This document shows, in pieces, positions 4,050 through 41,930 of a stretch of DNA of 64,000 nucleotides. The position numbers and the translations under genes are program-made. A model generated the notes under the pieces. The model worked only from the letters and a program-made list of their open reading frames with translations. It was not told where the DNA came from and did not search any database. The stretch covers positions 2,684-66,683 of the forward strand of contig CAYIOP010000002.1 in NCBI GenBank assembly GCA_964365185.1, in the 5' to 3' direction. Numbering within the stretch: the stretch's first letter is position 1; each line of letters opens with the position of its first letter. The stretch comes from an uncultured Candidatus Saccharibacteria bacterium (GTDB lineage Bacteria > Patescibacteriota > Minisyncoccia > UBA6257 > 2-01-FULL-56-20).

Positions 4050-4084
4050 CTTATTATAGCTAAATCAACAAATTAACCAAATTT

Positions 4085-4354: not shown

Positions 4355-4387
4355 TAAACATTTCAAAAAATCTGCTAAAATTTAAAG

Positions 4388-14420: not shown

Positions 14421-15317
14421 TTAATTTTTGCAATTAGTTATATCGCTTGGCAACAGGGGCAAACAAACACTGCTACTACAGGTATCAATTATATCGCTAC
14501 AACTATTTGAATTACTGCAAAGCAATTTGTACCCGGTCGGCTGACTTGAATCGTTTTGAGTGCAGCCAAATTTAGTTGCTCCGCCGCCTCCGCCAGTGGG
14601 GCCGCCCAAGCTGTAGCAACTGCCACCATTGCAATAGCCGCCCCCGTTATTTTCCATCGATTCATTGCATGATTGAGGGTTTAACCCAGCCGGACAATTG
14701 CCGTCTGGTATTATGCAATTTCCAGCCGAACAAACTTGTCCTAGTCCGCTGCAATTAGCCGACTCAAAACAACTTCCCGGCTCAACGCAGATATTATTAG
14801 GCGCGCAAATCAACCCTTCGTTGCAAGGGATAGCGGGCGTGCTGGTGCTCTGGATGCATATTCCTCCGACCGTGCCCGGCGGAATGCCCGGCAAAATTAC
14901 ATTTTTCCCCGTAATTTTTTTTAGTGTCGGAAGTTTTAGCTGGGTTAATTTTGGATTAATCGTGTTTAATACAACAAACGCGCCCGCCAAAAGCAAAAGT
15001 CCCAAAAGCGCCTGCTTGATTCGGTCTTTAGCATCTCCCTTGCGCGAAGGATTATCTGCCGAGAGCGTGTATTCAATACCTCCCCAAATCACCACCACAA
15101 AAGCCAGTAGCCCGCCCATCAGCAAGGCGTATTGATAAAGATTGCTGATGAGCCCAGCTGGGTCAGGATTTTTTTGGCTGGCTGGAATTGAGCCGGGAAT
15201 ATTGGGATTAATTTGCGCCGGATCAATCGTTGTTTCATCTGCCTGCGCCAAAGAAATCATCATCCCTCCTACTAATATTATCCCCGCCAATATCAAAAAA
15301 AATTTATAGTGCCTCAT
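14421..15317 (-). CDS. candidate T4SS pilin (TrbC/VirB2-like topology) with a long Cys/Gly-rich C-terminal extension
   Basis: Signal peptide, then two hydrophobic helices separated by a short charged loop (LLMGGLLAFVVVIWGGIEYTLSADNPSRKGDAKDRIKQALLGLLLLAGAFVVL). This is followed by ~150 aa rich in Cys, Gly and Ser. Confidence 0.35.
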   Translation of the reverse strand: MRHYKFFLILAGIILVGGMMISLAQADETTIDPAQINPNIPGSIPASQKNPDPAGLISNLYQYALLMGGLLAFVVVIWGGIEYTLSADNPSRKGDAKDRIKQALLGLLLLAGAFVVLNTINPKLTQLKLPTLKKITGKNVILPGIPPGTVGGICIQSTSTPAIPCNEGLICAPNNICVEPGSCFESANCSGLGQVCSAGNCIIPDGNCPAGLNPQSCNESMENNGGGYCNGGSCYSLGGPTGGGGGATKFGCTQNDSSQPTGYKLLCSNSNSCSDIIDTCSSSVCLPLLPSDITNCKN

Positions 15318-15322
15318 TAATT

Positions 15323-16033
15323 TTATTTTACAAAAGTTAATTTAATTTCCCGCGACGCCCGTTCGGTAAATTTTCTGGGATTTGAGACATTTAAAGTTGT
15401 TTTTAATTCAAAATTCGGCGCCACCTCTTGGTTTAAAACAACACTTAATTGATTTGATTTTTCGTTTTTTGCCGCTGGTCGGTCGTTAACTTTCCAAGAA
15501 AATTCAAGCTCCCCTTCGTTCTGAACGTTAAAAAAATACGGCTTAGCTAAAATTTGAATTCCTCGGTTTGAAAATTTATTTTCAAAAAACGGAGCAATTA
15601 GCGTCACCTCTGGCCTCACCGAGGGAATTAAAATGTTTTTAATAAGCATCCGCCCCTTATAATCTAGAATTTTAATTCTTAATTCCTGTTCTCCTGTCCC
15701 CACTACTCTAAAAGATGTCTTTTGGATGCCCACTCCGGTTTTAATCAAATCATCATTTAAATACCAGTAAATTTCGTTTTTAGAAAGGTTAACCAATCTT
15801 CCCGCATCAATTATTTCAAAGGCCGCTGAAATCAGCGAAGAATCAGTCGGCAAAATCTTGCCGGTAAATTCCGCTGGCGCGTAAGTATTAGCTCTCCAGG
15901 TGATTAAAAAATCTGGCTCCTTGGTCTGCGCCCGGGCTGTCAGGCCAAAAATTATTGCCAGCACCATTCCTAAAAACAGAATTATTACCCCGAATTTTAT
16001 CAGTTGTGGCCTATTGAATCCTATAAAAATCAT
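15323..16033 (-). CDS. hypothetical membrane-anchored protein (T4SS-like cluster)
   Basis: 236 aa, single N-terminal TM, beta-rich periplasmic part. Confidence 0.4.
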   Translation of the reverse strand: MIFIGFNRPQLIKFGVIILFLGMVLAIIFGLTARAQTKEPDFLITWRANTYAPAEFTGKILPTDSSLISAAFEIIDAGRLVNLSKNEIYWYLNDDLIKTGVGIQKTSFRVVGTGEQELRIKILDYKGRMLIKNILIPSVRPEVTLIAPFFENKFSNRGIQILAKPYFFNVQNEGELEFSWKVNDRPAAKNEKSNQLSVVLNQEVAPNFELKTTLNVSNPRKFTERASREIKLTFVK

Positions 16034-16219
16034 TTTAACTTTTTAATTATACCAGCTTTCTTCTTTGTTTCTAAACTGATAATTATCCACCATACTCCCT
16101 TCTGTTTTTGAAAATTGGGCATTGCTTACCCGCCGAAATCTTGATGAAGGCGGGATAATTGAAAATTTCTATCGTTTCTCCGTTGTATTACCACTGTATT
16201 TCTATGGCCTCTCTATTTT

Positions 16220-16834
16220 CTACGCCGTCATCCTGTAATCATTTTCTTCTTCGTCATCTTCGGGTTTTGCCTGCGGCTCCGGCAATTTTCGGGTAATATC
16301 CATCACTTTTTCTATTGGCTCTTTTTCTATACCAAAGGCCTCTTCTGAAACCTTAGGGGTTCCTGTTTCTTTTAACCCTCCTTCAGTTTTTGAAACAGCT
16401 TGGCCCGCTTCAGAACCACGAGCTGAACCCTTTGCTAATCCCTCGCTCGGAGCGCCTCCTCTTGGAGTTTGAACGCTTTTTTTAGGCATTCCCTTTTTGC
16501 CCCCAGCGCTTTGGCTAATTTGTACGGCTTTTGCCGCCGCGGATTCTGGATGTCTGTCGGCGTATACTGTCATCCAAAAACCAATTGTGAGGAGTGGCAG
16601 ATCTCCCACCCAAGGGATAAGTTCTGTCAGCCAAGACACTCCCATTCGGCCAAATCCTAAGCCCCTAAACCACAAATATATAACTATTATCGACGCCAGG
16701 ATGTCTCCTAGCCAGAAGTCATCTAAACCAAAAAAAATCAAAATAAGTTCAATCCCGTCAATTAAAATTAAATATATCGAAATCAGAACAATCTCTACTG
16801 TCTTAAGCTTTGGCTTCGGTTTCTCTTCATCCAT
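16220..16834 (-). CDS. hypothetical polytopic membrane protein with acidic C-terminus (T4SS-like cluster)
   Basis: 204 aa, 3 predicted TM segments. Its start codon is embedded in the left TIR of repeat copy 2. Confidence 0.4.
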   Translation of the reverse strand: MDEEKPKPKLKTVEIVLISIYLILIDGIELILIFFGLDDFWLGDILASIIVIYLWFRGLGFGRMGVSWLTELIPWVGDLPLLTIGFWMTVYADRHPESAAAKAVQISQSAGGKKGMPKKSVQTPRGGAPSEGLAKGSARGSEAGQAVSKTEGGLKETGTPKVSEEAFGIEKEPIEKVMDITRKLPEPQAKPEDDEEENDYRMTA

Positions 16835-16964
16835 GCTCCGTAGGAAATTAAATATTTTTTGTTAATTTGTAAACGACGTTTTCATATTATCTTACTTTGT
16901 CATAATTCTGCTAAATTATATTAGCTCAAAAATATTTTATTTTTCGTTATTTCCTACGGGGCAT
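16832..16964. repeat. 133-bp TIR element, copy 2 (CATGCTCCGTAGGAAAT ... ATTTCCTACGGGGCAT)
   Basis: Same length and ends as 3323-3455. The internal sequence is AT-rich with shared blocks (ttttgtaaa, gttttcat). Confidence 0.55.
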
Positions 16965-16978
16965 ATTTTATCTATAAT

Positions 16979-18736
16979 CTACGATTTTCCCTCTAAAATC
17001 TGTTGTGGATTCGTGGTGATAATTTTATCCTCAAAATAGGAAGCGATAATTTGAATCGAAACGTGTCTTCGGCCGGCAAAAAATAATCCTGTTCCCACTT
17101 CGGCTGTTAAAAGTAAACTTTTTTCCGCTTCAGTTAAACCAAAAGCCTTAGCCACGATATCAATGGTAGCCGGCGATTGTTTTAAAAGAATCTGAATTGA
17201 GGAGTTGGTGATAATCGGCCGGCCGTAAGGCGAGCGCAAAAAGTCCTCCACGTCTTGAGTAATAGTCGAGACCCCTAAGTAATATTTTCGAGCCCGTTTC
17301 ACCAGTCCAAAAAGGAAAATGGCGCTGTCTTCATATTTCATCATCCACCACGCCTCGTCGATAATTAAAAGCCGTTTTTTGAGTTGAGCGCGGGTTAAAT
17401 TCCAAATAAAATTTAAAATTATATACATCGCAATTGGCCGGAGCTCTTCTTCTAGATCGCGAATCGAAAAAACAATCAATCGGTTATTAACATTAATGTT
17501 GGTCGGCTGGTTAACAAATCCCGAAAAGCTACCTTTAGTGTATTTATAAAGTCGCTCCGCAATTCCTTTGCCCCCTTCCAAATTCCGTAAAACCGTCTCT
17601 AAATCTTCAAGCAGCGGTGCCTTCGCTCCGGTAAAATCCTCCCCAGCCACAATTTCGCGCGAAGCATAGGTTTCGGTAATTGCTCTATCCAAAAGCGCGT
17701 CTTCCACCGCCGTCACTTTGCCAAGCATTAGTTTAACCAGTCCTGCCATATTCACGATGTGAGACCGCAGAACATCCGATGCCGTCTCTCCGTCCGGAAT
17801 AGTTGGCACGTCAAACGGGTTAATGTGTTCGTCCGACGAGAGCGAGATATTAAAGAAACTTCCTCCAAAGGCCTCACATAACCTCTGGTATTCGTTTTCT
17901 GGGTCAATCACAATTACATCCACTCCGGTCATTAAGTAGCGGATAATCTCCAGTTTGGTAGTGTAGGATTTGCCTGAACCGGACTTGGCAAAAACTACCT
18001 GATTGGCGTTTTCAAGCGAAAACCGGTCAAAAATAATCAAATTATTATTGTGCCGGTTGATGCCGTACATAATGCCCTGGCTGGAGTTTAAGTCCTCAGA
18101 AACAAACGGAAAAAAAGAAGATACTGGCCCAGAATTCATTGGTGATTTCACATCGATTTTATCTTCTACGAGCGGGAAAATGGATTGCAACCCTTCAAGT
18201 TGTTGGAAAAGAGCGGGCTTAATATAAATCAGTTTCGCGTCCAAGATATTTACAACATGGCTTTCTAGTTTTGAGAGTTCCTCTAGGGTGTCTCCATAGA
18301 TGGCAATATAAACTCCCAAATCAAATAATTTTTCCTGGGCTTGTTGCAGAGAATCTCTTAAGGATTCCACGTCTTGAAGAGCGGTCTCTAGCATCGGGTC
18401 TCTCACTAAGCCCTTTTCTTGTTGGTCATTGATTTGGGATTCTATTTGAGCTGATTTTTTTCTTAAATTTTTAAGGGCAATGCCGGTGTCGATTGGATTT
18501 ATAAAAAGTGAGACGTCAAAAATGTTAGGCAAATTAATAAAGGGCTCAAACCAGCCGGTCGAGAGATAGCGTGGATAAGAAAAAACAAAAAACGTCTTGA
18601 CGAATTTGTCGCCGATTTTAAGGTAATTTGAATTCACCTGAACGCCGGCCGGCGAAATTATTTTTTTTGTTTCTTTAAAATTATTTTCCATATCTTTACA
18701 CTTCCTTTCCCGGAATATTTTGAAGTTCTTTTTCAA
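16979..18736 (-). CDS. VirB4/TrbE-family conjugal transfer ATPase, C-terminal ATPase portion
   Basis: Walker A FAKSGSGKSYTTK, Walker B LLIIDEAWWMM; TrbE/VirB4 C-terminal domain organisation. Confidence 0.75.
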   Translation of the reverse strand: MKKNFKIFRERKCKDMENNFKETKKIISPAGVQVNSNYLKIGDKFVKTFFVFSYPRYLSTGWFEPFINLPNIFDVSLFINPIDTGIALKNLRKKSAQIESQINDQQEKGLVRDPMLETALQDVESLRDSLQQAQEKLFDLGVYIAIYGDTLEELSKLESHVVNILDAKLIYIKPALFQQLEGLQSIFPLVEDKIDVKSPMNSGPVSSFFPFVSEDLNSSQGIMYGINRHNNNLIIFDRFSLENANQVVFAKSGSGKSYTTKLEIIRYLMTGVDVIVIDPENEYQRLCEAFGGSFFNISLSSDEHINPFDVPTIPDGETASDVLRSHIVNMAGLVKLMLGKVTAVEDALLDRAITETYASREIVAGEDFTGAKAPLLEDLETVLRNLEGGKGIAERLYKYTKGSFSGFVNQPTNINVNNRLIVFSIRDLEEELRPIAMYIILNFIWNLTRAQLKKRLLIIDEAWWMMKYEDSAIFLFGLVKRARKYYLGVSTITQDVEDFLRSPYGRPIITNSSIQILLKQSPATIDIVAKAFGLTEAEKSLLLTAEVGTGLFFAGRRHVSIQIIASYFEDKIITTNPQQILEGKS

Positions 18737-19376
18737 TCGTTTCCGGATTATAGAAATTATAAAAAAGCTCCACTAAGGCCTGGTCGTCTAAAAGAATCGC
18801 TTCTAGTCCGATTACGCTTAAGCCCTCAATAATTTGGTTTGATCGCTGGTTAATCTTGCTGACGTTTTCTTTAAACTCCAATTCTTTATTTTGTTCTTCT
18901 TGTTTTGGTTCCGGCGCTTGCTTTTTAAAAAACGGAATAAATTTAGTGATTCCCGCCACACTTTCTTTGCTTGGCAGATTAATTAAATTTAATGGCACCA
19001 CCACCAAAAATGTCTTCTCCATAATAGCGTTTTCATGAACAAACCCGCTGATAAATTGTTGGTATTCTCCAATTTGATTTCGGAGAAGGGGCGACGGTTC
19101 ATCGGCTTTTCTCGCTTCCAAGTTATTTAAATATCTTTCGATATTCACTTTTCTCGAATGAATGATGATTTGAATCGGAAAATCCAAGCTGTTTAAAAAA
19201 TTTTGATAACCCGACGAGATAATATCCATTTCACTCTCCGACATTAAAGCCGTATTTAACCCCGCCACCATCACTACCTGTCGCAGTCCTCCGTCTTTTA
19301 ATAGCACGACACTCTCTTTAATCTCCTCAATCTCCACCAAATCCTGAGTATTGGCTAGTTGTTGTTTTAGGGCCAT
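18696..19376 (-). CDS. probable N-terminal portion of VirB4 (separate frame, 41-nt overlap with the ATPase ORF)
   Basis: 226 aa. The two ORFs together total ~811 aa, the size of a full VirB4. They share strand, are adjacent and differ in frame by 1 nt. Confidence 0.4.
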   Translation of the reverse strand: MALKQQLANTQDLVEIEEIKESVVLLKDGGLRQVVMVAGLNTALMSESEMDIISSGYQNFLNSLDFPIQIIIHSRKVNIERYLNNLEARKADEPSPLLRNQIGEYQQFISGFVHENAIMEKTFLVVVPLNLINLPSKESVAGITKFIPFFKKQAPEPKQEEQNKELEFKENVSKINQRSNQIIEGLSVIGLEAILLDDQALVELFYNFYNPETIEKELQNIPGKEV

Positions 19377-19447
19377 AAAAATAAGTTCAATATATATTCT
19401 TCCTTCAATTATACTTTTACTTTGTCATTGAGTGAAGCCCTGACATA

Positions 19448-19924
19448 AGAGCTAAAAACGAAAAACTAAAAACGCAAAGTAAAGAATTAAGGGTTACCCT
19501 TTCTCTTTTTAAGGGTTAAGATGCTGGAGCCAAGAATATTAGCGATTTCAGTTGTTTCTTGTATCAATAATTCAACCTCTTCTAGGTTAGCTTTCTTAGC
19601 ATCTCTAAGTAAATACAGCCAAAACTTGCTCTCGTTGGCGGATTTTAAAGCATAACTAAAAAAATTAGTGAAGTCCTTTCTCGTGCTTCCAGCTTGAGCT
19701 TCAATAATATTCGCGCCTATACTAGTAGCGCTTCTCAGTAATTGCTTCGCGATTATTTGAACCGCTAAATCTTTTTTATCGAGGTTATCAATAAATTTTA
19801 TAATCTTCAAAGCCAATGAATAAGATTTCTTTTTTGAATCCATTCTTATTTTATATCTTTACACTTTTCGTTTTTAGCTTCTAATTAAATTCTACTTTAC
19901 GTTTTTCGCTTTTCGTTTTTAGCT
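19448..19924. mobile_element. IVS-like cassette: four-helix-bundle gene bracketed by ~30-bp imperfect inverted repeats
   Basis: Left IR agctaaaaacgaaaaactaaaaacgcaaagtaaag (19451-19484). Right IR ctttacgtttttcgcttttcgtttttagct (19896-19924). An extra direct copy cttttcgtttttagct lies at 19864-19880. Confidence 0.4.
19487..19843 (-). CDS. four-helix-bundle protein (23S rRNA intervening-sequence protein family)
   Basis: LAVQIIAKQLLRSATSIGANIIEAQAGSTRKDFTNFFSYALKSANESKFWL is the characteristic family core. Confidence 0.8.
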   Translation of the reverse strand: MDSKKKSYSLALKIIKFIDNLDKKDLAVQIIAKQLLRSATSIGANIIEAQAGSTRKDFTNFFSYALKSANESKFWLYLLRDAKKANLEEVELLIQETTEIANILGSSILTLKKRKGNP

Positions 19925-20449
19925 TTAACGGTAGTCCACCCTCCTCGCCGCTTTCCTCTCTCCGGTGATTTTCTCCAAAATTTGGTATTTTTCTTTAACC
20001 TTTTCCGAAAATTGTTTGGCGCTGGTTAAGCTTTCTTTGGTGCCGGTTTGAAGTTTTTGCCATTTTCCTTTTAAAGAAAGGCCCATCACGATATTTTCGA
20101 TCGACAATCCCGGCCGAGCCATTTTTTTAATTTCCTCGTCTTTTTTCACCTCTGATTTATCTAGAGTTGGTTTATCGGACTTCCAAACATAGGTTTGTGG
20201 TTGCCAGTAAAATTTTAAAGCTGAAAGCATTATCGTGGTAAAAGGCCGGCCGTTAATTTTAATAAAAGCCATCGAGCCGCCTACCGCCACCATTAGCAAG
20301 GTTAAAATCAGCCATAGCCAGGTTTTGACCATAAAAAATAGCAGAAAACTTAACCCCACCATCGCTCCGATATAAAAGAATTGTCTTAAGGTTAGGGGTC
20401 CAACTATTTTGTCTTCGGTTTCAATAAATTGAGGAACTTGAAATTGCAT
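19925..20449 (-). CDS. small two-TM membrane protein, VirB3/PrgI-like candidate
   Basis: 174 aa; two adjacent TM helices near the N-terminus; sits immediately upstream of the VirB4 ORFs, as VirB3 does in canonical T4SS. Confidence 0.35.
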   Translation of the reverse strand: MQFQVPQFIETEDKIVGPLTLRQFFYIGAMVGLSFLLFFMVKTWLWLILTLLMVAVGGSMAFIKINGRPFTTIMLSALKFYWQPQTYVWKSDKPTLDKSEVKKDEEIKKMARPGLSIENIVMGLSLKGKWQKLQTGTKESLTSAKQFSEKVKEKYQILEKITGERKAARRVDYR

Positions 20450-20484
20450 AAGTACATTTGATCTACAATATCTCTATTATCTCT

Positions 20485-20520
20485 CTATCACCTTTCGTCT
20501 ACAACCTAACACCTAATTTA
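20485..20520. repeat. heptamer-tract repeat (tctatcacctttcgtctacaacctaacacctaattt)
   Basis: Intergenic, upstream of the VirB3-like gene. Confidence 0.4.
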
Positions 20521-20524
20521 ATTA

Positions 20525-22138
20525 CTAAACTTTCTTAAGTGTTTCCAAGTCAATCTTTCCATTCTCCGGATTTAAATTCTTCGAATCCAAAGATATATTC
20601 TGCGGTTTTATGTCCGCGGTTTTAGGAGCTCCCTCTTGAAAAAATTTACCATCTTGTTTACTCGAGAAGAAATCATTTGTCTTAACACTTCCTTTGTTTA
20701 ATTCATCCGGTCTTTGAGGCAAGGGGGTGGGGGGCATTTTTATCTCCGGAGTCAATTTCTTATTTCCTCCGAAAAGCGATTTAAACCAATTTTTCTTCTG
20801 TGGCTCGGCTTCATAAGCCGGCAGTGAGCTTATCTGGTCTGCTCCATAATTAATTTTAGCCACTGGTTTTGGGATTGTTGGCTGCGGCATTTTATTGATC
20901 GGTGTTTCGGTTAGGGGTTTATTTAAATCAACCTTGTTGAATCGATTTAAATCCACCACCGGTTTTCCGGTTAAATCCATCGCCGGTTTTTGAAAGGCGG
21001 GTTTATTGATTGCTTCATTCGGTAAATTAGCTGGTCTCTCAAGCGGCGTCTGAAAAGAACTGTAGTGAACCACTTTTGGCGGCTTAATCACCTCTGATTT
21101 GGAAAATTCTTCACTGCTTTTTTTATCTTGTCTGCCAATTTCGATTCTAACAGGCCCCCTATCCTCGCCAGGCCTAATCATCTCGAACGTCGGGGACGGA
21201 GCTTCGATTTTAAAAGCCGCCTCTCTTTTCATCGGCGCCGAATTTAGCTCTTGATGAAGAATTAAAGGTTTCTCTGTTTCAATAGGGCGAACATTCGTTT
21301 TTGCTTCGAAGCTAGAAATTTTTGGAGTCGCCGTGATTTCAGTTGCCCCAACTTCTTGTTCTTCGTGTTTTTTAAGCACCCCGATTAATTCCGCGCCTGA
21401 CCGCTCTAATTTTTTAATTTCTTCCACAATCCCTAAAACATCGTTTTTTTGTTCCCAAGATAAGGCCGCTGGTTTTGGCGGCTCAATTGGTTTTTGAGCT
21501 GGCTGGATTTTTGGCGCTGGCGGCTGAGGAATCGGTATTTCTCTGGCTTGTGTCATGCTGCCGCTTAAATTCACCGGCATTATCGTTTCTATCTCGTCTA
21601 ACATCTTTGGCGCCACCTTTGGTTGCGCCTGAATTGGTTGAGGCTTTAAAGCCGGCTTAATTTCACCTTCCTTTTCTTTGGCCACTGTCCTTTCTATATT
21701 TTCCATCATGACCGGCGGCCTTTGGGTTTGAGTTATTGGTTGCTTTCTTTCTTCGGTTGTTTTAAAAGCCGCTTTTTCAAGTTCCAAATCCATTCCTACT
21801 CGCGATTCCTTGGTTACGGGAGCGTAAAGTTTCTCAAGCTGACTGCGATAAGGCGCAAAGAGCCGATTACCCAATGTTTTGGAAACATTCTCCGCGATTT
21901 TAATGTCGATTTTAAGAGCTTCCTGAAGTTCGCGCGCCACTTCCTCTGGGTGTAAAAATCCCATTATCACATAACCGGCGATTCTGGAAATTATTGGAAT
22001 TCTATCAACTGGAATATGTTCGGTCTCCGCAATTCGGTCTAAAATTTCCACGCTGTGTTCCGATACCAAAACCTCCCGCAGATTTTCTGGCAGAGTATCC
22101 CATCGCTGTAGAGCTTGTGATTTTGGAACAATAGTCAT
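20525..22138 (-). CDS. proline-rich hypothetical protein (T4SS-like cluster)
   Basis: 537 aa; central P/Q/K-rich low-complexity region (PIPQPPAPKIQPAQKPIEPPKPA). No catalytic motif. Confidence 0.45.
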   Translation of the reverse strand: MTIVPKSQALQRWDTLPENLREVLVSEHSVEILDRIAETEHIPVDRIPIISRIAGYVIMGFLHPEEVARELQEALKIDIKIAENVSKTLGNRLFAPYRSQLEKLYAPVTKESRVGMDLELEKAAFKTTEERKQPITQTQRPPVMMENIERTVAKEKEGEIKPALKPQPIQAQPKVAPKMLDEIETIMPVNLSGSMTQAREIPIPQPPAPKIQPAQKPIEPPKPAALSWEQKNDVLGIVEEIKKLERSGAELIGVLKKHEEQEVGATEITATPKISSFEAKTNVRPIETEKPLILHQELNSAPMKREAAFKIEAPSPTFEMIRPGEDRGPVRIEIGRQDKKSSEEFSKSEVIKPPKVVHYSSFQTPLERPANLPNEAINKPAFQKPAMDLTGKPVVDLNRFNKVDLNKPLTETPINKMPQPTIPKPVAKINYGADQISSLPAYEAEPQKKNWFKSLFGGNKKLTPEIKMPPTPLPQRPDELNKGSVKTNDFFSSKQDGKFFQEGAPKTADIKPQNISLDSKNLNPENGKIDLETLKKV

Positions 22139-22156
22139 TTAATTTAAAAATTAAAT

Positions 22157-24307
22157 TTATTCTTTTTCTCCTCCGCCTCCTCCATAGCTAAAGCCGCCTA
22201 AACCAACGGAGTTTCTCACCATAGAATTTTTAAAGTTTTCTACATTTTGTCTCATTTTTTCATCTAGTCTTGTTATTCTTTGAATTTGCGCTTCAGTTTC
22301 CAGAGAAGAAGGAAGGCCGGCTAGTCGGCTCATTTCTATTTTATAGCCAGCCAGCTCTTGTTCCATGGCGCCCTGATAAGATGGGGCGAAATTTTCTAAA
22401 GTCGAGGCCCTGGATTTTGAAATAACATTTGGCACTAACGAAGGCATGCTCGCTGTCATTCCATGGGCTACACTCCAACCTAGTTCCTTTAGAGTATTTT
22501 CGTCTAATCCCATTTTAGCTTTACCACTAAACATATCATTGATGTGCATAAGCGCCACATCTTTTTTCTCAAAAGTTTTATAAAATTCTCTCGCCGCCTC
22601 ATCAATTTTATCTCTTGAAGCCCCCCCTCTTTTTAAATTCATCATCTCTACATTTACCGTGCTCGCCTTTTCTAGTTTTTCGAAAGCTTTTTTCTGGTCA
22701 TATTGTTCATAAAGTTTTTTATTTCTATCATTAATAGTTGAATGAATATTTAAATCACCCAATTCTCCACGTTTCATTAATTCCTGTTCAATGGCTATTT
22801 TTTCTTCATTTGTAGCTGAAAGATGTTTGGTCTTTAGAACGCTATCAGAAAGTCCTTTTATTCTTTCTGCCGCCGCCTTCACTAAGTTTTCTCCCCCAGC
22901 CACCCTAAGTTGTGTTAACCCCGTTGCTCCCGCTCCCAGTCCTTTAGCCGCAAGGCCAGCGCCAAAGAATCTGGCTAATTTTGACCTATCTCTAAGCCCC
23001 TGAAGTCCCGAGGTAGCGGCTTTTAATCCCTTCTCAGCCCTAACAACCCCAGCCACTTTTCCAGCCGCCCTAATTCCTTTCCCTTTTGCCCACCCGCCCA
23101 TCTTGCCGGCAAATCCTTTCATCGCCGCCATCCCCGCCGCGGCTCCGTGAATGCTTAAACTATTGGCCGCGAAAAGTCCGCCGATCGCAAGCCCCACCAT
23201 CAAAACCGCCTGGAGCGCGAACTCTATAATTGGCGAAAAAAGCCCGGTAAAAAATCCGGTCTCAAGCGCCTTAAATGTCGAACTGTGAGTTGAACCAAAC
23301 GAACCCGAAGCCCCCTGGCCTTCAGACATTGCGCTGTTAACCAGAACCACTAAATAAAGGAAGAAAACTACAATCGGCGCGAAAAATACTTGTTTTAAAA
23401 AAGTGTGCCACCACTTATCCCAGTTGCTTTTAAGTCCTGGGAATATCCACATTAACCACGCAAACGGCATCAATATCAGAAGAATGCCAATCGAAACATA
23501 CCGATAAAGCAACATCACCACCAATATTCCTAAAGTAATATTAATTGCCGCCAAGGTGAGTATGGTCACAAACAAAGAAGCAATTGGCAGGAGTAATTTA
23601 CCCATTGATTGTCCTATAATCGAGTTGGTACCCGAATTTTGGTCAACATCTTCTGTGGTTAACTCATTCGCGCCTGCTTCAAATAAAACCCCTTTCTGCG
23701 GATTAAAAGCTCCAGATAAAGCGGTGGCAAAATTATTAAAAGAATTCCCCTCTCCAGCCGGATTCACTTGTTCCAAAAAATAAATCGTCAGTTGGTCCGC
23801 AAAGTTTAAAATCGCGCCGGCAAAAACCAAACTAAAATTAACCAGCAAAGCCGCCACAATCAATTTCCACAAAATCTCTTTAATGCCATAGCCAGAGATG
23901 CGCAAGATAGTGGCAATGGCAATCACGATAATCGCCGCGGTAAATCCTAAATTAGCGATTGAAAGGGATACCGGAAACCCGAATTTAACCGCCGGCGAAT
24001 TCACAATCTGAGTGTTCAGGTTCAAAATCACTTCAATTATCCAGGTCTGAATAGCAATTCCTATGGCCGCGATCGTGCTTATAAGCCACGAAAATCCAAA
24101 CATGACTTTTCCGATTACCGTATAAGCAATGTCGCCAAAAAAATCCGCGTGCGTCTGTTGCGGCGCAAACAAAATTACAAATACCAATGGCGCCGCGAGC
24201 CCCAGCCCCCAAACAATCACCCGTCGTTTTCCCCAAAACCAATTTTTTATTTTAATCAGTTGACGCATTTTCATCTTTTTAATTTTAACCAGTTGCCGCC
24301 GGTTCAT
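22157..24307 (-). CDS. VirB6/TrbL-like polytopic membrane protein with Ala/Gly-rich C-terminal domain
   Basis: 716 aa; signal/TM, then >8 TM helices, then a hydrophilic A/G/K-rich tail. Position and topology match VirB6-like channel proteins. Confidence 0.45.
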   Translation of the reverse strand: MNRRQLVKIKKMKMRQLIKIKNWFWGKRRVIVWGLGLAAPLVFVILFAPQQTHADFFGDIAYTVIGKVMFGFSWLISTIAAIGIAIQTWIIEVILNLNTQIVNSPAVKFGFPVSLSIANLGFTAAIIVIAIATILRISGYGIKEILWKLIVAALLVNFSLVFAGAILNFADQLTIYFLEQVNPAGEGNSFNNFATALSGAFNPQKGVLFEAGANELTTEDVDQNSGTNSIIGQSMGKLLLPIASLFVTILTLAAINITLGILVVMLLYRYVSIGILLILMPFAWLMWIFPGLKSNWDKWWHTFLKQVFFAPIVVFFLYLVVLVNSAMSEGQGASGSFGSTHSSTFKALETGFFTGLFSPIIEFALQAVLMVGLAIGGLFAANSLSIHGAAAGMAAMKGFAGKMGGWAKGKGIRAAGKVAGVVRAEKGLKAATSGLQGLRDRSKLARFFGAGLAAKGLGAGATGLTQLRVAGGENLVKAAAERIKGLSDSVLKTKHLSATNEEKIAIEQELMKRGELGDLNIHSTINDRNKKLYEQYDQKKAFEKLEKASTVNVEMMNLKRGGASRDKIDEAAREFYKTFEKKDVALMHINDMFSGKAKMGLDENTLKELGWSVAHGMTASMPSLVPNVISKSRASTLENFAPSYQGAMEQELAGYKIEMSRLAGLPSSLETEAQIQRITRLDEKMRQNVENFKNSMVRNSVGLGGFSYGGGGGEKE

Positions 24308-26714
24308 CTCCGTCGCAATAAAACTTAGACGTTGGCTCTAAATATGAACTGTTTATATCAGCCCTCCATTTCTTTATACCCTCCAATCTCTCGTTGGCAT
24401 CTGATAAAGATAAACTAAGCATTTCAAAATCAAACCTAGTTTCTAACGATTGATTTAATTCTCGTACTTGCGAAGTGCTGGTGGTATTTTGAGCTTCATT
24501 GATAAAGTTATTGAGCCATGTGATCGAAGAACTCGCTTTATTAATTTCTTGTTGGAGTATAACTGGCTCTCTTGTTTCATAGTTCTTAATAGCAATTACC
24601 ATATTCGATAATCTAATAGGATCCCTATTGTCAGGTGGTCCATAATCATCCGCGCATAATACAAGCGATCTTTTCAGCACGTCAATGGTTAAAGGTATTT
24701 CCGGTAAATAAGAGCTATATTGGGCAAGAGTCAGGACTAGAATTTCTCGATAACCCTCTGCCAATTTTATCAAAGTGCTGGTCGGCTGAACTGAATTAAT
24801 CTCATTAATTTCTTGCGCGTCGCGAACGCAATCCCGATATTCCTGCGACTCCAAATTATAAGTGGCGCAAGTGGTTGTATAATCTTCTACTTCGTTTCGT
24901 CTATTTGAAACCAAAGCTAACCCTTCCGCTCCTTTTTGAAACATTTTATTAATTAAAGAATCCACAAAAGCGGTCGCAATCGCTATTAAATCATTGGAAT
25001 TAACAATCCAATCCAGATGTGCTCCAAGCGCTCTGTCGAGTGTCTCTGCCACTGCTTTGCCTGGTGTGGTATCTTCCCAGCCGTCTTGCGGGCAAACGTT
25101 AAACCATTTTAGTCCATCTGAATCCTGCTCTATCGGACCGATGTAATCTACTCCTGTCATTTTAGCTACTGCTTTTGCATCTTCCTCATCATTACCACTT
25201 AACGAACCTAATCTGGCCTCAACTTCTATAAAATCAATTGTTTTTCTCTTCTTACAAACTCGAGTTGTTAAAAATCCTTGGCTTGAACCGACTTTAAGCT
25301 GTTCTGCTTCTGCTTGCTTGGCGGATTTAGCCAGCGCCAAGTCGCTTAATTCAATCACCACTCCAAAATAATTATTCTGGGGTTTTAATACTTTGATATA
25401 ACTCTCAATTCCTCCAGCCCTAAAGTCATCATAAAAATCTTTTATATTTTCCGTCGCTTCATTCAGAGTGCATTTGAATTGTTTTTGAGTTCTTCTTTCT
25501 TCATTGCCCCGGGGAATTTCAAAACTTTTTATTATTAATCCCCTAAACCGTGAACAAAGCACTCCGGGCACAGTGATATTTGCCACCGCGCTTGAGAAGG
25601 TATTCACCGCGGCGTCTTTTAGAAAACCCGGGAAGTCCTGAACAAATTTTGGTTTACCGCCGCCCTGAATCCAATTGGTCGTTTGCTTCACAATCATATC
25701 TATTAGTTTCTTTTTAAGTTTTTCAGTTATTACTTGTTTAATCACTTTCCAAACATCACGCGCAAATATCTGAATATCGAAAACTATATCCCCAAACCCC
25801 AAAAATGCGTGAGCTTTCTTAATTGAAAAAATATTTACTAGAAATGAAATTGCTCCGTTCTGATTTTCTCCGCTCGAAAATTTATTTAATGCTTCGGCTT
25901 TTTTAAATTCATCTTCAAATTTACCAATCGCCTGATTGTAATTTTCTTCCTGCAGTCCAAAAACCAAACCGGTTTTAACCGGGTCAATTTGATCTTGAGC
26001 CAAAGTCAAAAAGTTTTTCTGATACAAAATAAGCTCCAAAAAACTTTTATGGAAATTAGCGAGCGGCTCCGGCACCTTAAGTGTTTTGGTTTTAATTATT
26101 GTTTGATCCAAAGCCAGCTCCACCGAACCCATAACTGTCTCTGGCGACGACTCGCTCAAAAAATTTGATAACCCGGTTTTAACAAAATTTTGTTCAATGA
26201 TTTCATTAAAGTTAGCAATATATTGAGCAACATCTTCCTGACTGGAATTTTTAATTATTTTAAAATCATTACTTTCTTTTTCTAATTCCCCCCTAACTTT
26301 ATTAATTTCCTCTCCAATTGCTTGAGGATTAGATATTGCCGCGGCCGAAGCGATTACATCTTGAGTTACGACATTCACCTTGTCAGAGATTAAACCCCCT
26401 TCTTCGGGATTTAGCGTTGCCATCTTTTCAGTCAATTTTCGCGCCAGATTTTCTGTTAGATTAGAGGGGTCTTCAGCCGGAGGCAACTCAACTTCACTAT
26501 TTTGAACCAGCGCCTCTGGTTGTTGAATTAGTGTTTCAATAAAAGCGCTTTTATTATTTTGACCATTTTCGGCTTTTGTCCCGGCTTCTATTTCAAAATC
26601 ACTATTTATGGTTGGTTTTTTTGAGTCCAATAAGCCGCCTAAAACAAAAGTCAACGAGCCAGCCATCAGCGCAAGTAGCAAAAAACTGGTGATGAGTTTT
26701 TTCGGATCAGCCAT
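24285..26714 (-). CDS. large secreted/surface hypothetical protein (T4SS-like cluster)
   Basis: 809 aa, N-terminal signal/TM, no recognisable catalytic motif. First gene of the minus-strand cluster. Confidence 0.4.
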   Translation of the reverse strand: MADPKKLITSFLLLALMAGSLTFVLGGLLDSKKPTINSDFEIEAGTKAENGQNNKSAFIETLIQQPEALVQNSEVELPPAEDPSNLTENLARKLTEKMATLNPEEGGLISDKVNVVTQDVIASAAAISNPQAIGEEINKVRGELEKESNDFKIIKNSSQEDVAQYIANFNEIIEQNFVKTGLSNFLSESSPETVMGSVELALDQTIIKTKTLKVPEPLANFHKSFLELILYQKNFLTLAQDQIDPVKTGLVFGLQEENYNQAIGKFEDEFKKAEALNKFSSGENQNGAISFLVNIFSIKKAHAFLGFGDIVFDIQIFARDVWKVIKQVITEKLKKKLIDMIVKQTTNWIQGGGKPKFVQDFPGFLKDAAVNTFSSAVANITVPGVLCSRFRGLIIKSFEIPRGNEERRTQKQFKCTLNEATENIKDFYDDFRAGGIESYIKVLKPQNNYFGVVIELSDLALAKSAKQAEAEQLKVGSSQGFLTTRVCKKRKTIDFIEVEARLGSLSGNDEEDAKAVAKMTGVDYIGPIEQDSDGLKWFNVCPQDGWEDTTPGKAVAETLDRALGAHLDWIVNSNDLIAIATAFVDSLINKMFQKGAEGLALVSNRRNEVEDYTTTCATYNLESQEYRDCVRDAQEINEINSVQPTSTLIKLAEGYREILVLTLAQYSSYLPEIPLTIDVLKRSLVLCADDYGPPDNRDPIRLSNMVIAIKNYETREPVILQQEINKASSSITWLNNFINEAQNTTSTSQVRELNQSLETRFDFEMLSLSLSDANERLEGIKKWRADINSSYLEPTSKFYCDGDEPAATG

Positions 26715-26774: not shown

Positions 26775-26850
26775 ATCTATCACCTACTGCGTCCGTCCGA
26801 AGCTTTAAGCGAAGGCGGATAACCTATCATCTAAAACCTCTCACCTAACT
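26775..26850. repeat. intergenic copy of a ~36-bp core repeat (ctactgcgtccgtccgaagctttaagcgaaggcgga) flanked by heptamer tracts
   Basis: The core at 26784-26819 is almost identical to the core at 27051-27086 inside ksgA. Confidence 0.5.
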
Positions 26851-27751: not shown

Positions 27752-27780
27752 CTCTATAACCTATAACCTAACACCTAATC
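27752..27780. repeat. heptamer-tract repeat (tctataacctataacctaacacctaatcc) in the ksgA-uvrD intergenic region
   Basis: Same CACCTAA-type heptamers. Confidence 0.4.
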
Positions 27781-38908: not shown

Positions 38909-40435
38909 ATGTCCGAATTCTTACCCCTTCTTATCGGGGGCGCCTTGGTTCTAGGAGGAGCGGCGGGTTATTTTATTCGCCACATCTTTTTTGCTCGTAA
39001 ATCAAGTTCTATCGAGCATAAAATTATCTCTAAACTTGGAGAAGCCGAAGAGCGGTCAAAAAAAATTATTTTAGAAGCCGAAAGTAAGGCCGTCGATCTT
39101 TTAGGCGACGTTCGGCGTGAAGGTCGCGAACAAAAAACTAAACTTGATAGTTTAGAAGAAAGGATTTTGCACCGAGAGGAAATTTTAGACAAAAAATTAG
39201 TTGCCCTAAGCAACGACGAAAATTCTTTAAAAGCTCAAAAAGAAGAAATCAAGAAAAAAGAATTAGAAATTGAGAATGTCAAAAACGATTTGGAAAGTCA
39301 ACTTGAGAAAACTAGCGGCCTAACTCGAGATGAAGCCCTTAAGCTTTTAACTGGAGAAATTAAAGAAAAATATAGCCGTGATTTAGCCGATTCCATTCAA
39401 AAACTAGAAAAAGAACGAAAAGAAGAAATCGAAAAGAAATCCAGCGAGATTATCGCTTCGAGCTTGGAACGCTATGCCCGATCTCAGGTGGCCGAACTCA
39501 CCACCACCTCTTTTTCTTTGGCGGACGAAGAATTAAAAGGAAAAATTATTGGTCGGGAAGGCAGAAATATCCGAGCGCTCGAAAGAGCCACCGGCGTTGA
39601 ATTTGTAATTGATGAAACTCCAGATAGTGTGGTGATTTCTTCTTTCGATCCCATTCGAAGAGAGGTTGCTCGCATGGCTCTTGAAAAACTAATCAAAGAT
39701 GGCCGCATTCAACCCGCTAAAATTGAAGAAAAAGTTGAAGAAGCCAAACAAGAACTTAATAAACGCATTATGGAAATTGGCGAATCCGCCACTCAGGAAG
39801 TTGGTATCTATGATTTACCCAAAGAAATTATCCAGCTTTTAGGTCGCCTGCATTTTAGAACTAGTTATGGCCAAAACGTCCTCCTCCATTCTATAGAAAT
39901 GTCTTATCTAGCCGGCATGATGGCCTCTGAACTGGGTTTAAATGTAGAAGTCGCTAAAAAAGGCGCCCTGCTTCACGATATAGGCAAAGCTATTGACCAC
40001 GAAGTTGAGGGCACTCACATTGAACTTGGCCGTAAAATTTTGAAAAAATACGGCGTTAACGACTTAGTGATTCAAGCTATGCAATCGCATCATGAAGATT
40101 ATCCCTACGCGATTCCCGAAGCGTACTTAGTCACCACTGCTGATGTTTTGTCGGGCGCGAGGCCTGGCGCCAGGCGTGATTCTCTTGAACATTATATTAA
40201 ACGTCTCGGTGACTTGGAAAAAATTGCCTCTGAATTTCCGGGTGTCAAAACCTCTTACGCTGTTTCCGCTGGTCGGGAACTTAGGGTTTTTGTTGTTCCG
40301 GAAAAAATAGATGACTTTCGGGCGTTGGAGATGGCTCGAGAAATTGCCAATAAGATTCAATCTGAGTTAAAATATCCTGGTGAGATTAAAGTCGTGGTGA
40401 TTCGCGAAATGAGAGCGGTTGAGTATGCCAAGTAA
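38909..40435 (+). CDS. rny: ribonuclease Y
   Basis: N-terminal TM, coiled-coil, KH domain (GKIIGREGRNIRALE), HD domain (LLHDIGKAIDHE...H). Confidence 0.9.
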   Translation: MSEFLPLLIGGALVLGGAAGYFIRHIFFARKSSSIEHKIISKLGEAEERSKKIILEAESKAVDLLGDVRREGREQKTKLDSLEERILHREEILDKKLVALSNDENSLKAQKEEIKKKELEIENVKNDLESQLEKTSGLTRDEALKLLTGEIKEKYSRDLADSIQKLEKERKEEIEKKSSEIIASSLERYARSQVAELTTTSFSLADEELKGKIIGREGRNIRALERATGVEFVIDETPDSVVISSFDPIRREVARMALEKLIKDGRIQPAKIEEKVEEAKQELNKRIMEIGESATQEVGIYDLPKEIIQLLGRLHFRTSYGQNVLLHSIEMSYLAGMMASELGLNVEVAKKGALLHDIGKAIDHEVEGTHIELGRKILKKYGVNDLVIQAMQSHHEDYPYAIPEAYLVTTADVLSGARPGARRDSLEHYIKRLGDLEKIASEFPGVKTSYAVSAGRELRVFVVPEKIDDFRALEMAREIANKIQSELKYPGEIKVVVIREMRAVEYAK

Positions 40436-40442
40436 TTAGATT

Positions 40443-40529
40443 ATAGGTGATAGGTTTTAGAATTTTGGCGCTAAAAAGCAAAATAGTGGAATTTTTCTAA
40501 CACCTAACATCTAACACCTAACCTCTATG
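40443..40529. repeat. heptamer-tract repeat pair in inverted orientation (ataggtgatagg ... ctaacacctaacatctaacacctaacc) immediately upstream of the 40527 start codon
   Basis: Same CACCTAA family as the other heptamer tracts. Confidence 0.4.
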
Positions 40530-41930
40530 TTCCTAAAACTCTCCAAATTTTTTATTTATCTTTCTGTTTTTAGCGTCGTTATTGTTTTGACCTCGACTTT
40601 CTTTCCGTTTATCGGTGGCAAGTATTATTTTTTCCGCGTTTGCGTTGAATTAGCTCTTATTTTCTTTTTACTGTTTTGGGCTTTTGAGGCTCAAGGAAGA
40701 GAAATTCTAGACCGGTTCCGTAAGATTTCTCGAGAGCCACTTTTTATCGCCACCTCCCTTTTTGTTTTGTTTTATCTCTTAGCTTCAATTTTTGCCTATA
40801 ATTCTCACGCTGCTTTCTGGTCCAATTATGAGCGAGGCGAAGGAGGGTTTCAAATGTTCCATTATTACATTTTTTTTGTTTTATTACTTTTGATTCTTAA
40901 AGAACCAAAAGAATGGAAAAATCTTTTTATTTCTTCGGTCGTGGCAGCCGTTTCAATGATCGGCTACGGCCTCTTAGCCAATCTTGGTCTTGTTTCCCAG
41001 TTTATTGATCCATTCATGGGGGAACCTCCTTCCGGGTTTTTAAAACGACTCATTCAGCCCCGATTTCAAGGTTCTTTGGGCAATCCCGCTTATGTCGCCC
41101 CTTATTTAATGTTTGCTATGTTCTATGGCGCCTATCTTTGGATAAGCTCTAAGTGGCGAAAAAATTGGCGACGACATTTATTTTTTGGGGCTCTTATTCT
41201 TTTTTTCTTATCCTTTCTTATACTGTCTCAAACCCGAGGAGCTTTTTTAGGATTAGCCATCGCTATTTTGATTGGGCTAATTTATCTTATCATTAGTTTT
41301 CCGGCCATTAGGAAAAAAACTCTTATAATTCTAGCTGTTTTAATTTTTATTGGAGGCCTTTTAATTGGTTCTCGCCATAATTCTTTTGTTAAAAATCTTC
41401 CTGGCGGGCGATTTTTTGAAATCTTTGATCTCGGTGTTAAAACTGATACGGTTCAAACCCGTTTTTGGACTTGGGGCTCGGCTTGGGCCAGTTTTAAGGA
41501 ACGCCCAATTTTGGGTTGGGGTCCTGAAAATTTTAGTGCGGCTTTTGATAAGTATTTTGATATCCGCCATTATTCTCCAGGCAAAAATTCCGAAACGTGG
41601 TTCGACCGAGCTCACAGCGTTATCTTTGATTACTTAGCTGAAACCGGACTTTTAGGATTTTTAAGCTACCTGAGCATTTTTGTAATTTTCTACTGGAGAG
41701 TTTTTTCTCGCCCCAAAAATAAATCTGAAATGAGAGCTAACTCTCTAGAGCCATCAGGCGATTTAAATTTTAGAAATAATTTTCTTCTTCAAACTCTTTT
41801 CGTTATCCTTCCGATTGGTTATTTGGTTCAAGGCCTAGTTCTTTTCGATGTCTTACCAATTTATGTAAACCTTTTTATCTTTTTAGCGTTCAGCGTTTAC
41901 TTATTTACTTTCTATGAATCAAAATCTTAA
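40527..41930 (+). CDS. O-antigen ligase/polymerase-like polytopic membrane protein
   Basis: ~12 TM; TRGAFLGLAIAILIGL and a large periplasmic loop typical of the Wzy_C/O-antigen-ligase family. Confidence 0.45.
   Translation: MFLKLSKFFIYLSVFSVVIVLTSTFFPFIGGKYYFFRVCVELALIFFLLFWAFEAQGREILDRFRKISREPLFIATSLFVLFYLLASIFAYNSHAAFWSNYERGEGGFQMFHYYIFFVLLLLILKEPKEWKNLFISSVVAAVSMIGYGLLANLGLVSQFIDPFMGEPPSGFLKRLIQPRFQGSLGNPAYVAPYLMFAMFYGAYLWISSKWRKNWRRHLFFGALILFFLSFLILSQTRGAFLGLAIAILIGLIYLIISFPAIRKKTLIILAVLIFIGGLLIGSRHNSFVKNLPGGRFFEIFDLGVKTDTVQTRFWTWGSAWASFKERPILGWGPENFSAAFDKYFDIRHYSPGKNSETWFDRAHSVIFDYLAETGLLGFLSYLSIFVIFYWRVFSRPKNKSEMRANSLEPSGDLNFRNNFLLQTLFVILPIGYLVQGLVLFDVLPIYVNLFIFLAFSVYLFTFYESKS

Follow-up and report, generated by a model that had tools for sequence, protein, structure and literature searches.

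A PF05635 gene bounded by inverted heptamer arrays in a type IV secretion-like operon is probably one copy of a widespread, discrete cassette

The 64,000-nt stretch of DNA analysed here (the window, whose numbering is used throughout except where another locus is named) carries on its minus strand a gene of the 23S rRNA intervening sequence (IVS) protein family, PF05635, that is bracketed by inverted repeats and lies between genes of a type IV secretion system (T4SS)-like operon. We refer to the gene together with its repeats as the cassette (Table 1). The 5′ arm starts directly after the TAA stop codon of a PrgI-like gene, and the end of the 3′ arm is separated by 73 nt from the next gene, an N-terminal piece of VirB4. 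The arms are 32 nt long, 411 nt apart and complementary at 29/32 positions (91%); this inverted repeat ranked first in the window among those with arms ≤1500 nt apart. An earlier, sequence-only reading of this DNA had described flanking repeats at 19451-19484 and 19896-19924, essentially those measured here, a further arm copy at 19864-19880, and insertion of the gene between VirB3-like and VirB4 genes. All three hold: the sequence TTTTCGTTTTTAGCT is exact not only at 19450-19464 (−) and 19910-19924 (+) but also, as the further copy, over 15 nt at 19865-19879 (+), the stop codon of the PrgI gene abuts the arm, and VirB4 is split into two open reading frames (ORFs). With ≤2 mismatches, TTTTCGTTTTTAGCT has nine matches in the window versus 0.97 expected, and none of 100 shuffles reached nine. 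No second copy of the gene or of its arms was found elsewhere in the window, weak matches at 27366 and 27706 being attributable to chance. The G+C content of the window is 40%, and the arms are A-rich and T-rich, respectively. The same gene arrangement is present on four independent contigs from Hainich groundwater assemblies.

Folding of the flanks had been proposed as a check on the sequence-only reading. In the predicted fold of the minus-strand RNA, both arms close a ~35-bp stem around the ORF, in the minimum free energy (MFE) and centroid structures alike. The MFE of the cassette RNA was −126.3 kcal/mol (z of −3.3), and none of 100 shuffles folded as well. The second arm copy provides an alternative pairing partner for the 3′ arm.

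The encoded protein of 118 residues matched the PF05635 profile, 23S_rRNA_IVP (IVP, intervening sequence protein), over profile positions 6-105 of 106 with an E-value of 3.4e-22 and a score of 79.1 bits (cut-off 33.8), and the TIGR02436 profile, 'four helix bundle protein', with 89.6 bits (cut-off 24). An AlphaFold2 (AF2) monomer model of the protein (pLDDT 92.5) comprises helices at residues 3-19, 26-51, 55-81 and 87-116. According to Foldseek, this model matches BT_0352 (2RLD; TM-score 0.80-0.90, 41% identity; phmmer E-value 2.6e-16) and Xcc0516 (2GSC; TM-score 0.80-0.86), both of which were solved with five chains. Remoter matches, at 16% identity, were to the Avd proteins of diversity-generating retroelements (DGRs; 4DWL and 8UB7, TM-score 0.75-0.84). 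A conserved motif, GxxRxxxSxxxNxxE, is given for the family (PMC3936711). R37, S41, N45 and E48 of this motif are present in QLLRSATSIGANIIEAQ, and the leading G is Q34 in this subfamily. Among 31 homologues, S41, N45 and E48 were invariant and R37 was at least 90% conserved. The profile scores, the fold and the R-S-N-E motif together place the protein in PF05635/TIGR02436, the assignment made from the sequence alone. In two pairs of loci that share only the cassette, dN/dS was 0.07 and 0.16, indicating that the ORF is under purifying selection. A search of the PADLOC models for a role in anti-phage defence returned no family at E ≤ 0.01.

To place the locus in its family, we detected 6716 relatives of the window protein, the best 120 being 70-81% identical, fetched the genomic loci of 80 of the closest, and compared ~180 related loci overall. 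The hosts of the 80 loci are Candidate Phyla Radiation (CPR)/Patescibacteria, Omnitrophota, Zixibacteria, Dehalococcoidia, Nitrospirota, Planctomycetota and one archaeal metagenome-assembled genome (MAG). Most of the 80 genes lie between co-directional protein-coding ORFs. Nearly all of these loci have an A-rich heptamer array upstream of the ORF and its reverse complement downstream. The arrays usually span from the stop codon of the neighbour to the ORF and from the stop codon of the ORF to the next start codon; the intergenic space is typically ~15-60 nt per side and is therefore essentially the arm. We scored flank-to-flank inverted repeats for 111 PF05635 ORFs from CPR, Omnitrophota, Chloroflexota, Nitrospirota, cultured Nostoc and others. 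The score exceeded the 95th percentile of 150 random window pairs in 94/111 and their maximum in 75/111. A period of 7 was ~2-3 times stronger than other lags, with a mean tract score of 11.6 as compared to 3.7-5.3 at lags of 5, 6 and 8-11. The arms have a median of 4.4 and 4.3 units, respectively, most often 4-5, with a spread of 2 to 8. The architecture of these 94 loci, and the likeness of the cassette to the Coxiella IVS in size, stem and 5′ heptamers (below), bear out the idea of a self-contained IVS-like module.

We also aligned 20 joined flanks. In a stem of 41 pairs, 82% of the cells were paired, versus 36-55% when the partner was slid by 1-3 columns, a control that flatters the stem somewhat because the stem was chosen by voting over the same 20 sequences. 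The stem contained 65 double-change cells, versus 40 ± 5.7 in shuffles, and none of 500 shuffles reached the observed value. Arm sequence varies by subfamily, and the two arms within one cassette stay complementary. In metagenomic loci, the heptamer units include TAGGTGN, GAATTAT, CCACTAG, AACAACC and GAAGCTA, each mirrored beyond its ORF. The units are (CAATTCG)n and (AATTCGT)n in Nostoc, GAAAGNG/CTCTCCG in Treponema, TTTACGA/AATCCCC in Planktothrix and CAGTNNN in Chondrinema. We considered provision of stop codons in three frames as the purpose of the heptamers, which fits TAGGTGN and the A-rich arms, and dropped it because (CAATTCG)n of Nostoc does not fit. Separately, some of the same CPR junctions hold a G+C-rich palindromic repeat (for example, GTCATTGCGAGC...GCAATC), seen in locus L100 (3011-3243), in L115 (~1750-1900) and in the downstream flank of L027.

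We then examined orthologous junctions by fetching 80 relatives of the VirB4 ATPase (57-86% identical) and mapping four genes in each; 66 loci contained both genes that flank the cassette in the window. In at least 24 of these 66 T4SS-like operons the junction between PrgI and the N-terminal VirB4 piece is empty, with a spacer of 5-76 nt; these are the uninterrupted virB3-virB4 junctions for which the sequence-only reading had proposed a search. Twelve of the 66 have a PF05635 ORF at this junction; different subfamilies are represented, every one with arms of its own (TAGGTGN, GAATTAT, CCACTAG, AACAACC and others). Two of the twelve, L120 and L121, contain a pseudogenised ORF between retained arms. 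In L123 both arms surround an N-terminal fragment of the ORF, and in L099 the two arms stand alone. The closest relatives include each state. In L175 (ATPase 86% identical), the junction holds a cassette of the window's own subfamily, with an IVP 75% identical. L085 and L102 have ATPases 85-86% identical; L085 carries a PF05635 gene with TAGGTNN arms and no relation to the window gene by tblastn, and the junction of L102 is empty. At this distance, the spacers of the empty relatives closest to the window are too diverged for base-level comparison. Cassettes occur elsewhere in the operon as well: ahead of PrgI, in the gap that separates the VirB4 pieces, and following the ATPase. The identity of the IVP is uncoupled from that of the ATPase, as in L052 and L056 (ATPase 80%, IVP 59%). 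Overall, that the junction may be empty or hold another cassette speaks against the gene being required for secretion.

Several cassettes of different subfamilies can also lie within a few kb of one another: L175 (1082-2451) has two, one on either side of PrgI, L006 has three, and the 3.5-kb contig of L071 has three. The two VirB4 pieces of the window (16979-19376, −) are 4 nt apart, and the same split is present in all fetched relatives with both pieces on the contig. A PF05635 cassette occupies precisely this split in L037, L117 and L164, so that the split itself may stem from an old insertion of a cassette.

Copies in otherwise unrelated DNA define the ends of the unit. Locus L164 contains two cassettes of 449 bp, one before PrgI and one between the VirB4 pieces, that are 100% identical, the identity starting and stopping at the outer ends of the arms. 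A MAG of Nitrospirota and one of Nitrospinota (L058/L073) share a cassette of 464 bp at 86% identity and nothing else, and two Dehalococcoidia MAGs (L069/L068) share one of 484 bp at 92% identity and nothing else. In these pairs, too, nucleotide identity stops at the outer arm ends. Plasmids of cultured Nostoc carry cassettes that are 85-88% identical, and two of three locus pairs have the cassette alone in common. The Nostoc cassettes are bracketed by perfect (CAATTCG)4-5 and (GCGAATT)4 arrays, and the same heptamer also forms arrays close by on these plasmids, either singly or in pairs. The nearest homologues of the window protein (77-80% identical) are encoded between carA and carB and downstream of secF. 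The 121 neighbouring ORFs matched 164 Pfam families, and the architecture also occurs in organisms without this operon, among them Nostoc, Treponema and Planktothrix. The sequence-only reading had raised the possibility that the module is mobile. The idea stood up to comparison with relatives because these show empty junctions, differing cassettes, identical copies and cassettes that are the only sequence shared between unrelated genomes.

Three plasmid loci deserve separate mention. In a Gloeocapsa PCC 7428 plasmid (L171) and a Ca. Chlorohelix plasmid (L172), at ~1480-1990, the cassette occupies the same junction between genes for DUF1156 and Swt1-family HEPN proteins; the hosts are a cyanobacterium and a member of the Chloroflexota, and both cassettes have heptamers of the ATTTTAG/CTAAAAT type. 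In pNsp_c of Nostoc sp. ATCC 53789 (L181, 1801-2697), an annotated 77-residue 'DNA cytosine methyltransferase' fragment runs into the 5′ array and a 93-residue 'hypothetical protein' starts within the 3′ heptamer array; this cassette may have split a methyltransferase gene.

The siting of the cassettes follows the direction of the host genes. The upstream neighbour is co-directional in 72/76 loci, as compared to 81% of the other adjacent pairs in the same loci (p = 6e-4), and both neighbours are co-directional in 63/78 loci (background 71%, p = 0.03). In T4SS loci, 22/22 PF05635 ORFs are co-oriented with the operon. A rare anti-oriented case is plasmid pANACY.01 of Anabaena cylindrica (L170, 1305-2066), where the cassette lies between cas2 and cas1 on the strand opposite to both. 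The siting fits a promoterless element that depends on read-through; selection against disruptive insertions would look similar. The T4SS-like operon is over-represented, with 11/80 closest homologues lying in it and PrgI being the commonest neighbour family (9/121 neighbours). Conserved 16S and 23S rRNA motifs were absent near all 164 of 164 related loci searched, and the window itself contained no Rfam family at the gathering score and no tRNA. The sequence-only reading that the module had landed outside rRNA is therefore only half upheld: it lies outside rRNA, but the usual home of this subfamily is operon junctions and not rRNA. As for its suggestion that the module creates a site of RNase III processing between virB3 and virB4, a promoter-like box follows the cassette, so that the two genes may be separated without a processing site; a TATAAT-like box is also present in relatives with an empty junction.

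Table 1. Features of the cassette and of the adjoining host operon in the window
Feature	Positions	Strand	Basis or remark
Whole cassette, 475 nt (5′ arm, second arm copy, ORF, 3′ arm)	19450..19924	−	Limits are the inverted-repeat ends
5′ arm, gene sense AGCTAAA AACGAAA AGCGAAA AACGTAA AGTA	19893..19924	−	~4.5 imperfect heptamers; TRF period 7/14
Internal second copy of 5′ arm	19858..19880	−	15 nt exact
PF05635/TIGR02436 four-helix-bundle gene, 118 aa	19487..19843	−	HMM matches, AF2 model, Foldseek
3′ arm, reverse complement of 5′ arm	19450..19481	−	29/32; begins 5 nt past ORF stop codon
Upstream host gene, PrgI family (VirB3-like), 174 aa	19925..20449	−	PF12666, E 3.5e-11
Promoter-like TTCACT-17-TATAAT, host DNA outside cassette	19408..19436	−	10/12 matches
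Downstream host gene, N-terminal VirB4 piece (TraC-like), 226 aa	18696..19376	−	PF26593; NCBIfam VirB4 profile positions 18-190
VirB4 ATPase piece, 570 aa from ATG at 18691	16979..18691	−	PF19044 E 5.7e-30; NF045971 VirB4-like 388 bits

Other repeats were noted in the window. At 40436..40526 (+), TAGGTGA-type heptamers and their inverted complement, with no ORF between them, fill the junction of the co-directional ORFs 38909..40435 and 40527..41930. This element is predicted to form a hairpin of −30.2 kcal/mol (z of −2.7), its 3′ arm runs into the start codon, and its arm type is that of the L085, L087 and L093 cassettes; it resembles a cassette from which the ORF has been lost or in which there never was one. 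TTAGGTG-type heptamer arrays occur on the gene-sense strand at 26821-26848, 27490-27550, 27754-27770 and 28569-28604. Two such arrays lie at the 3′ ends of a KsgA-like gene and of the gene after it, two short direct copies lie in frame within the KsgA-like ORF around an insert of ~35 nt, and one array is in frame within a UvrD-like ORF. No inverted partners were found for the arrays of this region. A 33-nt tandem repeat at 24243-24309 (two copies, 82% matches, TRF score 92) lies at the overlap of ORFs 22157..24307 and 24285..26714. Finally, a perfect 22-nt inverted repeat, TTTAATGTTTAGCGCTAAACAT, with arms that are each partly palindromic, occurs at 4082-4103 and 4337-4358, 233 nt apart.

The explanation that we consider probable is that a discrete cassette of ~450-480 bp is widespread and that the element at 19450-19924 is one of its copies. 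In this cassette, inverted repeats made of heptamer arrays enclose a PF05635 gene, whose product is homologous to the IVS protein S23p and to Avd of DGRs. It is a unit with sharp ends that is present, absent or replaced at orthologous junctions and that decays to ORF-less inverted-repeat remnants. Across the loci compared, gain, loss, exchange and duplication of cassettes at the junctions between genes are seen in many bacterial phyla. The cassette would lack a promoter of its own and be transcribed by read-through from the prgI-like gene. In the transcript, the A-rich 5′ arm and the U-rich 3′ arm would form a duplex of ~32 bp. A 32-bp duplex in a bacterial transcript is an expected substrate of RNase III, and, by analogy with the 23S rRNA IVSs that carry an ORF, the arm duplex could plausibly be cut. 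Such cleavage would release the cassette's small mRNA and shorten the prgI message at its 3′ end. A motif search found no RNase III signature in the 64-kb window, a result that is uninformative for the rest of the genome. The protein, predicted to be a pentameric nucleic-acid binder, would probably serve the upkeep or spread of the cassette and not type IV secretion. Binding of the heptamer arms by the protein is a reasonable idea, suggested by the 4-5 units per arm and the pentameric homologues.

Several observations weigh against this explanation. No transposase, integrase or reverse transcriptase was found beside the cassette in the nine ORFs scanned (14421-24307) or among the commonest neighbour families, and no target-site duplication was seen at the boundaries of the L164, L058/L073 or L069/L068 cassettes. 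Most of the evidence comes from metagenome assemblies, and the duplicate in L164 might, in principle, have arisen as an error of assembly. No consensus structure came out of RNAalifold for the 20 joined flanks, and pairing of cognate arms is only moderately stronger than that of non-cognate arms of the same subfamily (−38.7 versus −33.0 kcal/mol). The excess of co-orientation above background is modest. The 11/80 homologues in one operon type could reflect a functional link rather than a favoured target, and part of the distribution appears to be vertical descent because L175 has the same subfamily at the same junction. Finally, the mismatches between the arms are strand-symmetric in two independent alignments (53 G.U versus 49 A.C; 94 versus 88). 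They resemble what neutral divergence between two copies of a single sequence would give, and because G.U and A.C mismatches are equally frequent, nothing in them singles out pairing of the sense RNA, although the duplex energies lean slightly towards the sense strand (p = 0.004). The arms may just as well, or in addition, function at the DNA level, either as ends of the element or as arrays bound by protein.

A stronger form of this last point is that the arms act mainly on DNA, as terminal inverted repeats or iteron-like arrays for a recombinase acting in trans or for the cassette's own pentameric protein, one heptamer per subunit, the RNA duplex being a by-product. We regard this as possible and the less likely account. 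The symmetry of the mismatches and the similar numbers of transitions and transversions speak for it; the identity between copies ends at the outer arm ends, as it does at transposon termini; and the arrays, mostly of 4-5 units, and a heptamer type specific to the protein subfamily suit a protein whose solved homologues (2RLD, 2GSC) are pentamers. However, no recombinase or target-site duplication was identified, the number of units per arm ranges broadly from 2 to 8, the heptamer can vary within one protein subfamily (TAGGTGN versus CCACTAG), and the rRNA-borne relatives are demonstrably processed as RNA (PMC4990558). Roles in DNA and in RNA are, moreover, not mutually exclusive. Movement through RNA is an improbable alternative. 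Here, the read-through transcript would be bound by the Avd-like protein and copied by a reverse transcriptase from another locus, and the cDNA would be integrated. The fold matches Avd, including Avd subunits of a DGR reverse-transcriptase ribonucleoprotein (4DWL, 8UB7), the cassette is co-oriented with host transcription, and both target-site duplications and a DNA transposase are lacking, all of which would suit such a retro-mobile element. Against it, neither the nine ORFs around the cassette nor the commonest neighbour families include a reverse transcriptase, the similarity to Avd is remote (16% identity), and the copies keep both full arms, whereas RNA processed by RNase III would lose the outer half of each. 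Neither an A-to-N pattern nor a pair of template and variable repeats came up, and no search was aimed at either.

The gene might instead be an ordinary, vertically inherited and immobile accessory gene of the CPR type IV secretion/DNA-uptake operon, with a stem that regulates or stabilises the mRNA. This would account for the frequency of PrgI among the neighbours and of this operon among the closest homologues, for the shared subfamily and junction in L175, and for the strong purifying selection on the ORF. It is largely refuted because the junctions of relatives are empty, in at least 24 operons, or replaced, as in L085, a close relative by its ATPase whose PF05635 gene tblastn does not relate to the window gene. 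It also fits poorly with the use of three different junctions, the independence of IVP from ATPase identity, the closest homologues within carAB and after secDF, neighbours from 164 Pfam families, and the same architecture in Nostoc, Treponema, Planktothrix and others without the operon; we consider it very unlikely. That the repeats are a chance feature of A/T-rich, low-complexity intergenic DNA has a negligible probability. The A-rich and T-rich arms, the 40% G+C content of the window and the good pairing of non-cognate arms of a subfamily would be expected of such DNA, but the idea is refuted by the shuffle and random-pair controls: no shuffle of 100 reached the motif count, 75/111 loci exceeded every one of 150 random pairs, and compensatory changes exceeded the shuffles in 500/500. 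The inverted repeat is, moreover, the best in the window, and G+C-richer arm types exist (CCACTAG, GAAAGNG/CTCTCCG, CAATTCG).

With a discrete cassette as the preferred explanation, the locus and its relatives tie a protein family, inverted ends and heptamer arrays into one unit, which has spread into operon junctions of uncultured CPR as well as of cultured Nostoc, Planktothrix, Treponema and Bacteroidota. RNase III processing, binding by the protein and movement of the cassette thereby become testable in culturable hosts. Cultured carriers include Nostoc punctiforme PCC 73102 (pNPUN02, NPUN_RS35560), N. flagelliforme (COO91_RS42325/42395) and Treponema saccharophilum (AABB03_RS11730). Cassettes lie between pieces of genes, with VirB4 split here and a cytosine methyltransferase possibly split in Nostoc, and those inside cas, resistance-nodulation-division (RND) efflux and carAB operons may have been misread as components of these systems. 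The origin and spread of bacterial rRNA IVSs and the function of their conserved ORF have been open questions since the early 1990s, and the purpose of tandem heptamers in cyanobacteria and other phyla is likewise unexplained. A broader and decidedly tentative view would connect these: PF05635 cassettes might be an unrecognised, cross-phylum class of mobile element, with ORF-bearing rRNA IVSs as the subset that landed in rRNA and intergenic heptamer arrays as ends or relics. A pentameric Avd-like protein that reads about five heptamers per arm would then represent a new, transposase-free mode of DNA movement or maintenance. In the full text searched, from which subscription journals are mostly missing, no literature was found that joins PF05635 genes outside rRNA to inverted heptamer-array ends; this is absence of evidence only.

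Several known systems resemble the cassette in part. It shares the four-helix-bundle fold with Avd of DGRs, and homology between PF05635 and Avd has been noted (PMC10053308). By contrast, descriptions of Avd genes do not mention inverted heptamer repeats on either side, and there is no long direct repeat near the cassette gene. The cassette is not a DGR because the nine ORFs at 14421-24307 include no adjacent reverse transcriptase. MITEs (miniature inverted-repeat transposable elements) are likewise small and multicopy, with terminal inverted repeats, ORF-less derivatives and a preference for intergenic sites. Unlike MITEs, the cassette has a conserved ORF that is not a transposase gene, repeats that are internally periodic and variable between lineages, and a strong preference for junctions between a stop and a start codon; no target-site duplication was seen around the two L164 copies.

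Intergenic tandem heptamers have been reported as short tandemly repeated repetitive (STRR) sequences in heterocystous cyanobacteria, as TAACTGA in Beggiatoaceae, cyanobacteria and Bacteroidetes, and as GGGAATC, with convergent pairs, in Xanthomonas (PMC4679880, PMC4692102). Such repeats often end 1 nt before a start codon, and their patchy distribution across phyla suggests horizontal transfer (PMC4679880, PMC4692102). They resemble the cassette arrays in being short, intergenic tandem 7-mers, sometimes in convergent inverted pairs, but the cassette arrays are the two ends of a gene cassette. A term search of PMC4679880 and PMC4692102 returned no occurrences of PF05635 or four-helix-bundle genes. 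PF05635 genes wedged in cas operons, for example between cmr3 and cmr2, appear in the accessible part of the report of Zhang and Ye 2013 (PMC3936711), and the cassette between cas2 and cas1 in Anabaena cylindrica is a similar case. In that part of the report, such genes are seen as having possible cas-associated functions, and flanking repeats and mobility are unmentioned (PMC3936711).

The closest comparison is with the rRNA IVSs. ORF-bearing 23S rRNA IVSs are found in Leptospira, Coxiella burnetii, Xanthomonas and Brucella. The Coxiella 23S IVS is 428-444 nt long and has a 28-bp terminal stem, which RNase III cuts in the middle, and tandem heptamers (GACAGAT) just 5′ of its S23p ORF (PMC4990558). 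In CPR, insertions in 16S and 23S genes encode 23S_rRNA_IVP (bioRxiv 10.1101/2024.02.27.582315). The cassette, at 475 nt, corresponds to these IVSs in its PF05635 protein, in terminal inverted repeats that form a stem of ~28-32 bp around the ORF, and in heptamers 5′ of the ORF. It differs from them in that it lies between protein-coding genes, with rRNA motifs at 0/164 related loci, and in that its ORF has a dN/dS of 0.07-0.16; the ORF in Coxiella, by contrast, is reportedly not translated and in decay. Excision by RNase III has been shown for the rRNA IVSs and would apply to the cassette by analogy. The rRNA IVSs are regarded as selfish and horizontally spread (PMC4990558; bioRxiv 10.1101/2024.02.27.582315), and we take the same view of the cassette. 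Because it lies outside an rRNA gene, the defining site of these elements, the cassette is not an rRNA IVS proper, though it is IVS-like.

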